Below are positions 2,406 to 6,854 of a stretch of 64,000 nt of DNA, piece after piece. Source of the stretch: Alphaproteobacteria bacterium (lineage in GTDB: Bacteria; Pseudomonadota; Alphaproteobacteria; DATDPM01); assembly GCA_036475545.1 (NCBI GenBank), contig JAZGAE010000155.1, positions 2,291 through 66,290 on the forward strand. Reading direction: 5' to 3'. Each line of letters begins with the position of its first letter. The stretch's first letter is position 1. A program made the position numbers and the translations under genes. The notes under the pieces were generated by a model. That model had not been told where the DNA came from, searched no databases, and saw only the letters and a list, made by a program, of their open reading frames with translations.

Positions 2406-3860
2406 TCAGGCGATCTCCGCCAACAGCGACAGCTGCGCGCTCACCGATCCGCCGTCGCGATCGGTGAGCGCGATCGGGTAGTCGCCCGTGAAACAGGCGT
2501 CGCAGAACTGGGGCCGTTCATTATCGCGGCCCTGCTCGCCCATGGCCCGGTAGAGCCCGTCGATGGAAAGGAACGCCAGGCTGTCCACGCCGATCAGCCG
2601 GCCCATCTCGTCGACGTCGTGAGAGGCGGCGAGCAACTCCTTCCTCTCCGGCGTGTCGATGCCGTAGAAGCAGGAATGGGCCGTCGGCGGGCTCGCGATG
2701 CGCATGTGGACCTCCGCCGCCCCGGCGTTGCGCACCATCTCGACGATCTTCTTCGAGGTGGTGCCGCGCACGATGCTGTCGTCCACCAGGATCACCCGCT
2801 TGCCCCGGATGTGGGCGCGATTGGCGTTGTGCTTGAGCTTCACGCCGAGGTGGCGGATCTGCTCGCTGGGCTCGATGAAGGTCCGGCCGACGTAATGGTT
2901 GCGGACGATGCCGAACTCGAAGGGGATGCCGGCCTCGGCCGCGTACCCGATCGCCGCCGGCACGCCCGAATCCGGGACCGGAATCACGACATCGGCCTCG
3001 ACGTGATTCTCGCGGGCGAGCTCGGCGCCGATGCGCTTGCGGGCCTCGTAGACGCTCGTTCCCTCGACCACCGAGTCCGGCCGCGAGAAATAGATGTACT
3101 CGAAGATGCAGAACCTCCGCGGCGCGGGGCGGAAGGGGCGCATGCTGTGGGTCCCCTTGTCGTCGATGACGATCATCTCGCCCGCTTCGATGTCGCGGAC
3201 GAAATCGGCGCCGATGATGTCCAGGGCACAGCTCTCGGAGGCGAGAACGTAGGCCCCGTCCAGCTGCCCCAATACCAGCGGCCGGACGCCGACCGGGTCG
3301 CGCACGCCTATCAGCGCGTCGGCGGTGAGCGCCACCAGCGAATAGGCTCCTTCCACCTGGTTCAGAGCGTCCACGACCCGATCGTGGACGGTCACGCCGG
3401 TGCTGGTGGCGATGAGATGAACGATGACCTCGGTGTCCGTCGTCGACTGAAACAGACAGCCCGAGTCCACCAGCCGCTTGCGTAGCTCGATGGCGTTGGT
3501 GAGGTTGCCGTTGTGGCCGATCGCGAGGCCGCCGAAGGCGAACTCCGCGAACAGCGGCTGCACGTTGCGGAGCACCGTCTCGCCGGTCGTGGAATAGCGC
3601 ACATGGCCGATGGCGCAGCTTCCCGGCAGGCGGCTGATGACCTCCTCCGAGCCGAAGCTGTCGCCGACGTGGCCCAGAGCGCGGTGGGTATGGAACTGGC
3701 TGCCCTCGTAGGTGACCACGCCCGCCGCTTCCTGGCCGCGGTGTTGCAGGGCGTGCAGGCCCAATGCCGTTAGCGCCGCCGCATCCGCGTGGCCGTAAAC
3801 CCCGAAGACGCCGCATTCCTCCCGGAACTTGTCGTTGTCGAAGGGATGCGTAGTCAGCAT
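2406..3860 (-). CDS. purF: amidophosphoribosyltransferase
   Basis: 484 aa. N-terminal propeptide followed by CGVFGV. PRTase motifs (VDDSIVRGTT). Cys-rich C-terminus. Conserved cvpA-purF arrangement. Confidence 0.9.
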   Translation of the reverse strand: MLTTHPFDNDKFREECGVFGVYGHADAAALTALGLHALQHRGQEAAGVVTYEGSQFHTHRALGHVGDSFGSEEVISRLPGSCAIGHVRYSTTGETVLRNVQPLFAEFAFGGLAIGHNGNLTNAIELRKRLVDSGCLFQSTTDTEVIVHLIATSTGVTVHDRVVDALNQVEGAYSLVALTADALIGVRDPVGVRPLVLGQLDGAYVLASESCALDIIGADFVRDIEAGEMIVIDDKGTHSMRPFRPAPRRFCIFEYIYFSRPDSVVEGTSVYEARKRIGAELARENHVEADVVIPVPDSGVPAAIGYAAEAGIPFEFGIVRNHYVGRTFIEPSEQIRHLGVKLKHNANRAHIRGKRVILVDDSIVRGTTSKKIVEMVRNAGAAEVHMRIASPPTAHSCFYGIDTPERKELLAASHDVDEMGRLIGVDSLAFLSIDGLYRAMGEQGRDNERPQFCDACFTGDYPIALTDRDGGSVSAQLSLLAEIA

Positions 3861-3872
3861 GCCACCCGCCTC

Positions 3873-4550
3873 CTAACGGTCCTGAGTGCTTTCGAAAAGC
3901 CTGTCCAAGTCCCGCCGTTCGCGGGTCTCATAGCCCGACTCGCTGCCCGATTCGGCGGCCTTGGGACGCGGATTCGAAAGCTCCTCGGCGGTCCGCTCGG
4001 CCTCGGCGCGGTCCTCTCCATCCCCGGTGGTGGCTGCCTCCTCCTCCTCTTCCTCGAGGAATCCCTCCGGCAAAATGGGCCGGACGATCTCGGCACCCCA
4101 CTCGATGACGGGGCGCAGCCGCGCCTCGTTGAACGACGCGAACTCGGTCAAGGGCGATCTCAACGGGATATAAACGAGCGAGACGAGGACTGCCGCGGCC
4201 GCAAGGCCGGCCACGAAGCCGAGGGAGCGGTCAAGAGCGTTGAGCCGGCTTCCCCGGATCCAGCCGCTGAGCAACGAGCTCACGGCGAACAGGAAGAGCA
4301 GCGAGATGAGGAAAACGCCCACGCCGATGCCGATGTTGGCCAGAGATTCGCCCAATACGCCCTCGACCACCCCCTGATCCCTCAGGATCTCGGCGGCCAC
4401 CGGCTGGATGAAGTCGTAGCCGTAAAGGGTCGCGAAAGCGGCGCCGACCCAGGAGACCAGCCACAGCCCCCCCTTGATGAACCCGACCGCCAGACCCAGC
4501 AGGCCCGAGACCAGGATGAAGCCGGCTATGCCAAGGTCGAATGCGTTAAT
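3873..4550 (-). CDS. cvpA: colicin V production protein CvpA (membrane protein); start codon uncertain
   Basis: The track ORF (3873..4400) starts at a GTG. The same frame stays open about 50 codons further upstream and encodes a canonical CvpA TM1 (INAFDLGIAGFILVSGLLGLAVGFIKGGLWLVSWVG) that aligns to E. coli CvpA residues ~4-40. That stretch contains no ATG, GTG or TTG. An ATT codon at 4548-4550 lies 6 nt downstream of an AGGAGG Shine-Dalgarno sequence. Confidence 0.6.
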   Translation of the reverse strand: MNAFDLGIAGFILVSGLLGLAVGFIKGGLWLVSWVGAAFATLYGYDFIQPVAAEILRDQGVVEGVLGESLANIGIGVGVFLISLLFLFAVSSLLSGWIRGSRLNALDRSLGFVAGLAAAAVLVSLVYIPLRSPLTEFASFNEARLRPVIEWGAEIVRPILPEGFLEEEEEEAATTGDGEDRAEAERTAEELSNPRPKAAESGSESGYETRERRDLDRLFESTQDR

Positions 4551-4566
4551 GACAGGCCTCCTCGGG

Positions 4567-6036
4567 TCAACGCGGGTTCACGGGGCTGCGCCGGGGCACC
4601 GGTTTTCCCGGAATCCGCGTCACGCGCGCCGCGCCCGCCACGCGCGCCGCGCCCGCGATGACGTCGATCAAATCCTGTAGATGGCCGATTTCCTGAATCT
4701 CCAAGGTCCTCGTCCGGCTTGGGCTCCGCGTCCGCCCCCGCGCGCCCTTGCGCGGCGGGATGAACGCCCGCGCGAAACCCAGCTTCGCCGCCTCCTTGAG
4801 CCGCGCCTCGGCCTGGCCCACCGTGCGGACCTCCCCCGCCAAGCCGATCTCGCCGAACACGACCGAGTCCGCCGGAACGGGAACGTCCATCCGCGACGAG
4901 ACCAGCGCCGCCGCGGCGGCGAGGTCTGCGGCCGGCTCGGTGATGCGTAGGCCTCCCGCGACGTTTAGGTAGACATCATCGCTCGCAAACGCAAGGCCGC
5001 AGCGCGACTCCAACACCGCGAGTACGACCGCCAGCCGGCTTGCCTCCCACCCCACCACGGCGCGCCGAGGCGCGGCGAAGGGCGAGGGGGCCACCAACGC
5101 CTGAATCTCCACCAGGACCGGACGTGTCCCCTCGAGCCCGGCGAAGACGGCCGCGCCGCTCACGTTGCCGCGCCGCTCCGCGAGGAAAAGCTCGGACGGG
5201 TTCGCCACCTCGATGAGGCCGCCGTCCGTCATCTCGAAGACGCCGATCTCGTCGGTCGGCCCGAACCGGTTCTTGACCGCACGCAGGATTCGGAACTGAT
5301 GGCCGCGCTCGCCCTCGAAATACAGCACCGTATCGACCATGTGCTCGAGCACCCGCGGGCCCGCGATGAGGCCCTCCTTGGTGACGTGGCCCACCAGCAG
5401 CACCGCGATCCCGCGGCGCTTGGCGAGGCGGATCAGCTCGCCGGCCGAGGCGCGCACCTGGGCCACGGTGCCGGGCGCGGAGTCGAGACTGTCCAGGTAC
5501 ATGGTCTGAATCGAGTCCACCACCACCACCTTGGGGCCGTCGCCGCGGTCGATCGCGGCGATGATGCCGCCCATGTTGGTGGCCGCGGCGAGCTCGACCG
5601 CGGCGTCCGCCAACCCCAGCCTGCGCGCGCGCATGCGCAGCTGCTCCACCGCCTCCTCGCCGGAGACGTAGGCGCACCCGGTCTCGCCGCCGAGCGCCGC
5701 CACCACCTGCAAGACCAGCGTCGACTTGCCGATCCCGGGATCGCCGGCCACCAGCACGGCCGATCCCGCAACCAGCCCGCCGCCGCAGACCCGGTCGAAC
5801 TCGGCGATGCCGGTGGTGAGCCGGCTTGGCGCGGCGGCGTCCCCGGCCAGCGGCGCGAAATCGATCTTCCGCGCGCGACCCCTTTTCAAGCTGCGCCCGC
5901 CGCCCAGCGGCGCGCTCTCGTACGGCGCCTCCTCGACGATGCTGTTCCAAGCGCCGCAGGCTTCGCAGCGACCGCTCCACTGATAAGTGCTCGCCCCGCA
6001 CTCCTGGCAAACGTACCGCGGCGCAGACTTGGCCAA
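4567..6036 (-). CDS. radA: DNA repair protein RadA/Sms
   Basis: N-terminal C4 zinc finger (YVCQECGA...CEACGAWN). Walker A motif GDPGIGKST. KNRFG motif. Lon-like C-terminal domain. The likely start is a TTG at 6034-6036 preceded by GGGAGG, giving MAKSAPRYVC. The track ORF extension to 6702 is antisense to mlaF. Confidence 0.85.
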   Translation of the reverse strand: MAKSAPRYVCQECGASTYQWSGRCEACGAWNSIVEEAPYESAPLGGGRSLKRGRARKIDFAPLAGDAAAPSRLTTGIAEFDRVCGGGLVAGSAVLVAGDPGIGKSTLVLQVVAALGGETGCAYVSGEEAVEQLRMRARRLGLADAAVELAAATNMGGIIAAIDRGDGPKVVVVDSIQTMYLDSLDSAPGTVAQVRASAGELIRLAKRRGIAVLLVGHVTKEGLIAGPRVLEHMVDTVLYFEGERGHQFRILRAVKNRFGPTDEIGVFEMTDGGLIEVANPSELFLAERRGNVSGAAVFAGLEGTRPVLVEIQALVAPSPFAAPRRAVVGWEASRLAVVLAVLESRCGLAFASDDVYLNVAGGLRITEPAADLAAAAALVSSRMDVPVPADSVVFGEIGLAGEVRTVGQAEARLKEAAKLGFARAFIPPRKGARGRTRSPSRTRTLEIQEIGHLQDLIDVIAGAARVAGAARVTRIPGKPVPRRSPVNPR

Positions 6037-6077
6037 CGCCTCAGCCTCCCTCGGTTTCGGGCCGAACCGGCGCCGCG

Positions 6078-6854
6078 TCAGTCGCGCAGCGCCATCTTGA
6101 TCGGCCCTTCGGCCTTGCCGTGAATGAACTGATCGACATACGGGTTTCCGGAGTCGTCGATTTCGGAGACGAGGCCGTCCCAAACGATCTCGCCGCCGTG
6201 GATCATGGCCACCCGGTCGGCGATCTTGCGGGTGCTGGCCATGTCGTGGGTGATGGAGAGCGTCGTCGCCCCGAGCTCGCGCACGCTCTTGACGATAAGG
6301 TCGTTGATGACGTCGCCCATGATCGGGTCGAGCCCCGTGGTGGGCTCGTCGAAAAAGATGACCTCGGGCTGAGTCGCGATGGCCCGGGCCAGTGCGACCC
6401 GCTTCTGCATTCCGCCGGAGAGCTCCGCCGGCCATAGCTCGCCCGCCCCGTGGCCGAGCCCCACGGTGGCGAGTGTCTTGAGGGCGATCTCCTTGGCCGC
6501 CGCGCGGTCCATGCCTCGCCCCTGGATCAGGCCGAAAGCGACATTCTCCCAAACCGGGAGGCTGTCGAAAAGGGCCGAACCTTGAAACAGCATGCCGAAC
6601 TTGCGCAACACTTGTTCGCGCGCCTTCGGCTTCATGCCCATCGTCTCCTCGCCGTCGACCTTGATGCTGCCCTTTTCGGCGATCAGGAGCCCCAGGATGC
6701 ACTTGACCAGGACCGACTTGCCGGTACCCGATCCCCCGATCACCACCAAGGATTCGCCGACGCGGACGTCCAGGTTCACGCCGGTGAGGACCTTCTTGGG
6801 CCCGAAGGACTTGTGCAGGCCGCGGATGCTGATCTTCGGGACGGCGTCGTTCAT
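6078..6854 (-). CDS. mlaF: ABC transporter ATP-binding protein, MlaF/Ttg2A-like
   Basis: Walker A motif GGSGTGKS, ABC signature LSGGMQKRVALARA, and Walker B motif IFFDEPT. The start (MNDAVPKISIRGLHK) is an ATG at 6854 that overlaps the mlaE stop in an ATGA. Confidence 0.8.
   Translation of the reverse strand: MNDAVPKISIRGLHKSFGPKKVLTGVNLDVRVGESLVVIGGSGTGKSVLVKCILGLLIAEKGSIKVDGEETMGMKPKAREQVLRKFGMLFQGSALFDSLPVWENVAFGLIQGRGMDRAAAKEIALKTLATVGLGHGAGELWPAELSGGMQKRVALARAIATQPEVIFFDEPTTGLDPIMGDVINDLIVKSVRELGATTLSITHDMASTRKIADRVAMIHGGEIVWDGLVSEIDDSGNPYVDQFIHGKAEGPIKMALRD

Follow-up and report, generated by a model that had tools for sequence, protein, structure and literature searches.

A probable AUU start for cvpA in a clade of uncultured Alphaproteobacteria

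The CvpA protein encoded in a 64 kb stretch of alphaproteobacterial DNA (the window; GC content 68%) has a conserved N-terminus that lies upstream of the first in-frame canonical start codon. Where is its translation initiated? Three answers had been proposed in the initial annotation: initiation at an AUU codon, a frameshift or sequencing error, and initiation at an internal GTG. The data reported here argue for the first. The Pfam match, the constraint acting on the DNA and the comparison of related lineages all support the view that cvpA translation very probably initiates at the AUU located at 4550-4548 on the minus strand.

Organization of the locus

The order radA, cvpA, purF on the minus strand was established by combining the window ORFs with profile matches. 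The features of interest are listed below; codon positions are counted from the proposed start, denominated position 0.

4567..6036, minus strand: radA (TIGR00416 RadA, 527 bits), stop TGA at 4569-4567
4578..4580, minus strand: in-frame TGA closing the cvpA frame, 9 codons upstream of the ATT
4557..4563, minus strand: Shine-Dalgarno (SD) sequence GAGGAGG, with AGGAGG core at 4562-4557 and a 6-nt spacer, CCTGTC, at 4551-4556
4548..4550, minus strand: ATT (AUU), the proposed cvpA start (position 0), from the sequence and its alignment to clade members
4546..4548, minus strand: latent TAA in the radA frame, made of the T of ATT and the AA of AAC; it is the radA stop in 12 related lineages
4401..4547, minus strand: start-less stretch of 49 codons, encoding the conserved N-terminal hydrophobic segments of CvpA (presumably TM1-TM2)
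4398..4400, minus strand: GTG, first canonical in-frame start and the choice of gene callers (175-aa product)
3873..4550, minus strand: cvpA as re-annotated, 225 codons from the ATT plus the stop TAG at 3875-3873
2406..3860, minus strand: purF (TIGR01134 purF, 528 bits), ATG at 3860-3858

The radA start is a TTG (6036-6034) found 8 nt after a GGGAGG; the mechanical ORF list features also a spurious 711-aa radA ORF, which begins at a far-upstream GTG. The radA stop is separated by 16 nt from the cvpA ATT. At the other end, cvpA lies directly upstream of purF, a gene order repeated in relatives, and purF starts 12 nt past the cvpA stop; a cvpA-purF gap of 12 nt was also found in several relatives. 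The purF SD (AGGAGG, 3874-3869, with a spacer of 8 nt to the purF ATG) overlaps the cvpA stop, the TAG being the first part of a TAGGAGG tract (3869-3875, minus strand). A larger neighbourhood, made of mlaE, an ABC ATPase, radA, cvpA, purF and a short-chain dehydrogenase, is common to the window and to the 54%-identical lineage L166 (1-5716).

The cvpA frame is open from 4577 down to the TAG at 3875-3873. The nine codons preceding the ATT (ACC CGC GTT GAC CCG AGG AGG CCT GTC, 4577-4551) include no ATG, GTG or TTG, and the same holds for the 49 codons separating the ATT from the GTG (4547-4401), as the initial annotation had noticed. Its placement of the ATT 6 nt after a perfect AGGAGG is likewise correct on the minus strand, and translation confirmed that the peptide it had assigned to the first transmembrane helix, INAFDLGIAGFILVSGLLGLAVGFIKGGLWLVSWVG, is in frame with the ORF. 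What it called the annotated ORF is simply the ORF counted from the GTG, the window having come with no supplied annotation. The ATT at 4550-4548 is the sole AUN near-cognate correctly spaced from the SD. Scanning all 64 kb against Rfam at gathering thresholds gave no match, i.e. no tRNA, rRNA or riboswitch, and hence no known RNA element explains the start region.

In the flanking purF and radA genes ATG, GTG and TTG together occur at a rate of 0.074 per codon. At that rate 49 codons devoid of canonical starts are expected with P ~0.02. The gap is by itself only mildly unusual, suggestive rather than decisive, and the strong part of the evidence is comparative.

Coding nature of the start-less stretch

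The protein translated from the ATT matches the Pfam Colicin_V family (PF02674; gathering cut-off 29.3 bits) with 60.7 bits, over profile positions 1-140 of 144 and residues 4-150. This full-length match identifies the gene product as a member of the CvpA / Colicin V production family. The protein translated from the GTG scores 34.9 bits and covers profile positions 53-140 only. The 49 codons between the ATT and the GTG supply positions 1-52 of the profile, and about 26 bits.

Selective constraint has been measured by a pooled Nei-Gojobori pN/pS on a codon alignment of 16 distinct relatives. Codons 1-49 gave ~0.33-0.34, codons 50-149 gave 0.49 and the C-terminal tail reached 0.71; constraint on the first 49 codons is therefore no weaker than in the remainder of cvpA. 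When the same 48 codons were read in the other two frames, pN/pS rose to 1.32 and 2.22. Variability by codon position downstream of the ATT (0.152, 0.069 and 0.263) has the periodicity of coding DNA, while no such pattern is seen over the 36 nt upstream (0.44, 0.42 and 0.43). Constraint limited to one frame, and periodicity beginning at position 0, indicate that translation covers the stretch and starts at, or very near, the ATT.

Usage of GTG among valine codons varies along the gene. In the 20 clade loci described below GTG makes up 16% of the valine codons in codons 1-49, vs 40% in later ones; in the window the corresponding figures are 0/4 and 5/13. In the outgroups the share is 33% in both parts. 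The low early usage gives a hint, and only a hint, that internal canonical starts could be avoided behind a weak true start, a reading weakened by the shared ancestry of the lineages and contradicted by an ATG conserved at codon +17 in one subclade (see below).

Alphaproteobacterial CvpA proteins feature also a tail of ~70 residues past the Pfam domain (3876-4100 in the window, minus strand). A conserved motif, P-x-P ... G-Y-x-x-x-E-R-x-D-[ML]-[DE]-R-L, closes the tail. All 26 sequences compared share Y207, R212 and L218, and six consecutive glutamates precede the tail in the window.

Proposed start codon and Shine-Dalgarno sequence in related lineages

Related loci have been retrieved from a genome collection, a metagenome collection and contigs encoding individual proteins. 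The clade to which the window belongs comprises 20 distinct lineages, the window and 19 others, sharing 43-61% amino acid identity in CvpA. The organisms are uncultured, and the relatives are labelled 'Alphaproteobacteria bacterium' MAGs. A strain 98% identical to the window is represented in two independent assemblies obtained from different read sets (L161 and L162), and both are 100% identical to the window in the start region, from -45 to +60.

The codon aligned to position 0 is ATT in 16 of the 20 lineages, ATC in three (L164, L166, L168) and ATA in one (L004); ATG was never found (0/20). ATH alone is undiagnostic, as isoleucine is also an ordinary internal residue at this place in some outgroups. 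All 20 lineages carry an SD-like purine stretch of 4-7 nt ending 6-10 nt upstream of position 0, though part of this conservation could reflect protein-coding constraint, as in 12 lineages the SD is located inside radA coding DNA. The element has the form AGGAGG, AAGGAGG or AGGAG in most lineages, and is weaker in four, reading AGGA in L081 and GGAG or GGGAG in L085, L170 and L172.

Canonical starts are missing where they would be expected. Upstream of the conserved N-terminus the open frame has no ATG, GTG or TTG in the window or in 14 of the other 19 lineages. In L081-L085 an upstream ATG or GTG is present (-16 to -34), but it lies inside radA and is unconserved between close relatives. In-frame stops located 6-9 codons upstream limit the start region in several lineages. 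In L165 and L166 only codons -6 to 0 are available for the start, owing to an in-frame stop at the seventh codon upstream, and four lineages added later have no canonical start between the in-frame stop and position 0. In L168 and L087 the first 76-84 codons all lack canonical starts. The first canonical codon shifts from lineage to lineage, standing at +11, +13, +16, +17, +21, +31, +41, +50, +77 or +85. In subclade A an ATG is conserved at codon +17, and this codon could yield an additional, shorter isoform.

Loci outside the clade behave differently. The 149 outgroup loci used for comparison, 30-40% identical and mostly labelled Rhodospirillales or Rhodospirillaceae, all have an ATG, GTG or TTG between -10 and +2 of the aligned codon, mostly an ATG at -5, vs none of the 21 clade loci counted. 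In the initial annotation, orthologues starting at the residue equivalent to the GTG had been indicated as the finding that would speak against an upstream start; the aligned outgroup loci start instead at the ATT position or a few codons upstream of it. The presence of the feature throughout the clade, the interchange of ATT, ATC and ATA, and a start that overlaps or abuts the radA stop all go beyond what had been noticed in the window.

Likely origin of the proposed ATT start

In a neighbour-joining tree, which included the 17 distinct clade sequences then at hand, the clade is monophyletic and no sequence with a canonical start is nested within it; this monophyly supports a single origin. 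The nearest outgroup in the tree is L005, with a GTG at -1; the nearest by identity to the window is L006, which reads GTG GAG at -5 and ATC at 0. Outgroup proteins typically start with the pattern M-[E/D]-x-x-x-[F/V/I]-[N/S/T]-x-x-D. Outgroup L074 reads ATG GAG ATC GCG GGC TTC where clade member L084 reads CAG GAG ATC GCC GCC ATT; L166 and L168 read AAG GAG GAC ... ATC.

Nucleotide alignments of this kind make it likely that an ancestral start codon was turned into a ribosome-binding site. An ATG-GAG or GTG-GAG, located five codons upstream of the present start, would have mutated to CAG-GAG or AAG-GAG, a change destroying the start codon and creating at once an AGGAG sequence, and an isoleucine codon already in place five codons downstream would have taken over as start. 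The third position of this codon has since changed at least three times in the clade, never to G.

The junction with radA

Twelve lineages close radA with a TAA that overlaps the cvpA start (AT-TAA-C), the following AAC codon being invariant, and independent gene calls end radA exactly at this TAA. Outside these 12 the stop lies some 10-22 nt upstream of position 0. In the seven lineages which, apart from the window, have such a gap, the first base of the stop is 13-22 nt before position 0; L004 departs from this, its longest detected upstream ORF ending 72 nt before position 0. In L163 and L164 a TAGGAGG provides the stop, its TAG closing radA. In the window, radA terminates at the TGA, and the ancestral TAA persists seven codons further on in the radA frame. 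Offsets of 0, 1 and 2 between the radA and cvpA frames were all found among the lineages.

No promoter or terminator was detected between radA and cvpA when the 3700-6300 region was scanned, and the terminator-like matches found were within radA only, at chance frequency. With a gap of just 16 nt, cvpA is most likely read from the radA transcript. The translation-initiation region does not fold more stably than shuffled sequences (z = +0.88), and for this reason no structural switch is proposed. Co-transcription of radA and cvpA is likely on these grounds, and may be accompanied by some coupling through termination-reinitiation. Stops embedded in SD sequences, together with the short gaps, suggest that radA, cvpA and purF form a tightly coupled translational unit.

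Alternative explanations

Translation might start at the first canonical codon, the GTG at 4400-4398 in the window, to give a CvpA deprived of its first one or two helices, the 49 codons then being an untranslated leader. Gene callers selected such codons in protein clusters P0001-P0003, P0006-P0021, P0023 and P0028, and the product of the GTG ORF is still above the Pfam threshold (34.9 vs 29.3 bits). The supposed leader, however, matches positions 1-52 of the profile and is under purifying selection in the cvpA frame only, and the scattering of the first canonical codon from +11 to +85 implies a variability in truncation which a functional family would not tolerate; the GTG start is thus very unlikely. 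Starting at another non-canonical codon upstream of the ATT, or resuming translation after radA termination with no need for either SD or start codon, are conceivable in that ribosomes which have terminated are able to re-initiate close to the stop (PMC2268962, PMC3592434) and codons -9 to -1 are open in the window. Yet none of these nine codons is an AUN or NUG near-cognate, and a single mismatch is found only in the two AGGs, which make up the SD. Codons above position 0 have neither coding periodicity nor conserved length, and ATH is the only invariant near-cognate, all of which leaves to this explanation just a slight probability.

The lack of a start codon, taken alone, could also mean that the real start was lost through an error of sequencing or assembly, through a true frameshift, or in a pseudogene undergoing decay. 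The identity of the start region in L161 and L162, derived from different read sets, the recurrence of the same architecture in 19 other lineages known from independent metagenomes and MAGs, and an uninterrupted ORF of 225 codons subject to purifying selection all stand against it, and the 16 nt from the radA stop to the ATT offer no room for a lost start. A systematic error shared by short- and long-read projects is implausible, and the probability of this group of explanations, one of which had been the second option of the initial annotation, is close to nil. CvpA might finally be made by recoding from radA, through readthrough or a programmed frameshift, as a RadA-CvpA fusion or by a handover lacking separate initiation. 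The two genes do abut or overlap, and in L166 the radA stop sits in the cvpA frame. The frame relation, though, takes all three values, which excludes a conserved readthrough or frameshift fusion; in several lineages in-frame stops are interposed between radA and position 0; a strong SD conserved at initiation distance would be needless for recoding; and slippery sites or structures are not evident. Recoding is, on the whole, extremely unlikely.

Probable initiation at AUU and its possible role

Initiation at the AUU remains the best explanation of the locus. The 7-nt SD GAGGAGG, 6 nt upstream, would place the ribosome on the AUU, and initiator fMet-tRNA would read it as a near-cognate codon, by analogy with other bacterial non-AUG starts. 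The protein would begin with Met-Asn-Ala-Phe-Asp and retain the first conserved hydrophobic segment.

Codons of this type are poor starts. In E. coli, AUU, AUC and AUA support initiation at ~1-2% of the AUG level (bioRxiv 10.1101/063800), AUU was 6-8-fold below AUG in another reporter (PMC3592434), and IF3 discriminates against AUU-type start codons (PMC2268962). Little CvpA may suffice to the cell, as leaky, uninduced cvpA complements an E. coli cvpA deletion (PMC6705877); pairing a strong SD with a weak codon fits a protein of which the cell requires little. Ribosomes newly released at the radA stop may contribute part of cvpA initiation, and a weak and/or IF3-sensitive start may have been kept to hold CvpA low relative to RadA and PurF. 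This rationale, based on coupling and low expression, has at most about an even chance of being correct.

The exchange of AUU, AUC and AUA, but never AUG, which is one mutation away, suggests selection for a weak start. The AUH codon might accordingly be a regulatory device, kept by selection against reversion to AUG throughout the history of the clade, through which CvpA synthesis would be restrained and made dependent on IF3 activity, on ribosomes completing radA, or on both. This is put forward tentatively, and the odds are rather against it: the notion of selection against ATG draws on 20 lineages that share ancestry and on no fewer than three third-position changes. Conservation of AUH across ~20 divergent lineages offers comparative evidence that a weak start can be maintained, not merely tolerated. 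If the codon does work as a regulatory device, cvpA of this clade would join infC as one of the rare genes whose AUN start is deeply conserved, and would provide a natural system for studying the conversion of a start codon into an SD.

Consequences for annotation

A protein search identified 23 clusters of close relatives (P0001-P0021, P0023 and P0028), all mis-called at the 5' end in public records, being either truncated by about 8-78 residues or extended. Truncated calls begin at assorted internal ATG, GTG or TTG codons; P0001, the 98%-identical relative, is called from the GTG equivalent to that at 4400-4398. P0004 and P0005 are extended by 16-17 residues into the 3' end of radA, and still read I-N-A-F-D at the aligned position. 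Truncated calls lose conserved membrane segments, and calls of both kinds would corrupt predictions of topology and structure, as well as family alignments. In the window cvpA should be re-annotated as 4550..3873 (minus strand), with an ATT start.

Other genes of the window have been surveyed by a stop-to-stop ORF scan, noisy at 68% GC, in which high-GC3 ORFs of at least 200 codons with a long start-less 5' stretch were sought. In the other ORFs of this kind either the start-less stretch has low GC3 (0.36-0.6), or the domain follows the first canonical start; the latter was the case for all five candidates having 26-70 start-less 5' codons (5/5), as judged from the Pfam domain. In the 64-kb window cvpA is the only gene of this type, and ATH initiation is not visibly a genome-wide habit.

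Comparison with known systems

The initial annotation had cited infC as the known AUU case. Other cases exist: in E. coli only infC and pcnB are confirmed to start with AUU, AUC or AUA (10.1101/063800), and precedents in bacteria comprise, along with these two, Deinococcus dnaA and Enterococcus faecalis ebpA (PMC2830850, PMC4447247). A literature search for a non-canonical cvpA start returned nothing relevant.

The infC gene, encoding IF3, resembles cvpA in two respects. Its AUU or AUA start is an AUN codon conserved across many species, and it closely follows the upstream gene, the gap being 3 nt in E. coli (PMC3592434). The weak infC codon is a substrate of IF3 discrimination (PMC2268962, PMC2830850). 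In infC the codon closes an autoregulatory loop, the product being IF3 itself, whereas any sensitivity of cvpA to IF3 would be a passive input. CvpA is a membrane protein not known to be linked to translation.

The AUU start of E. coli pcnB, encoding poly(A) polymerase, is thought to limit the amount of product (10.1101/063800, PMC2830850). Across phyla pcnB starts alternate among AUG, GUG and UUG (10.1101/063800), whereas the AUN start of cvpA is fixed in all 20 clade lineages sampled. Deinococcus dnaA (ATC) and rpsL (CTG), and E. faecalis ebpA (ATT), are similar to cvpA in that conserved N-termini had been missed by annotation, and came to light from N-terminal conservation combined with alignment of the nucleotides (PMC2830850, PMC4447247). 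They differ in that proteomic or genetic data confirmed their starts, while that of cvpA is predicted from sequence, and in that they were reported within a genus or family, while the cvpA case spans lineages 43-61% identical.

Canonical CvpA, as encoded by the E. coli cvpA-purF operon, belongs to the same family (PF02674) and has the same place upstream of purF (PMC6705877). E. coli cvpA and the 149 alphaproteobacterial outgroup loci have a canonical start, which the clade has lost. Short overlaps and gaps are a hallmark of termination-reinitiation (PMC10666635, PMC3592434). As in the well-known ATGA and TAATG junctions, in 12 clade lineages stop and start overlap, here by one base, the clade version being AT-TAA; the shared codon is ATT, not ATG, and standard overlap scans would miss the radA-cvpA junction.

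The cvpA start thus appears to represent a known kind of rarity. New are cvpA as an example, the uncommon depth of conservation and an origin still legible in the alignments, along which a start codon seems to have become a ribosome-binding site and initiation to have shifted five codons downstream. The case carries a lesson for annotation and, with no new principle involved, adds to infC, pcnB and the other precedents a clean example extending over a whole clade.
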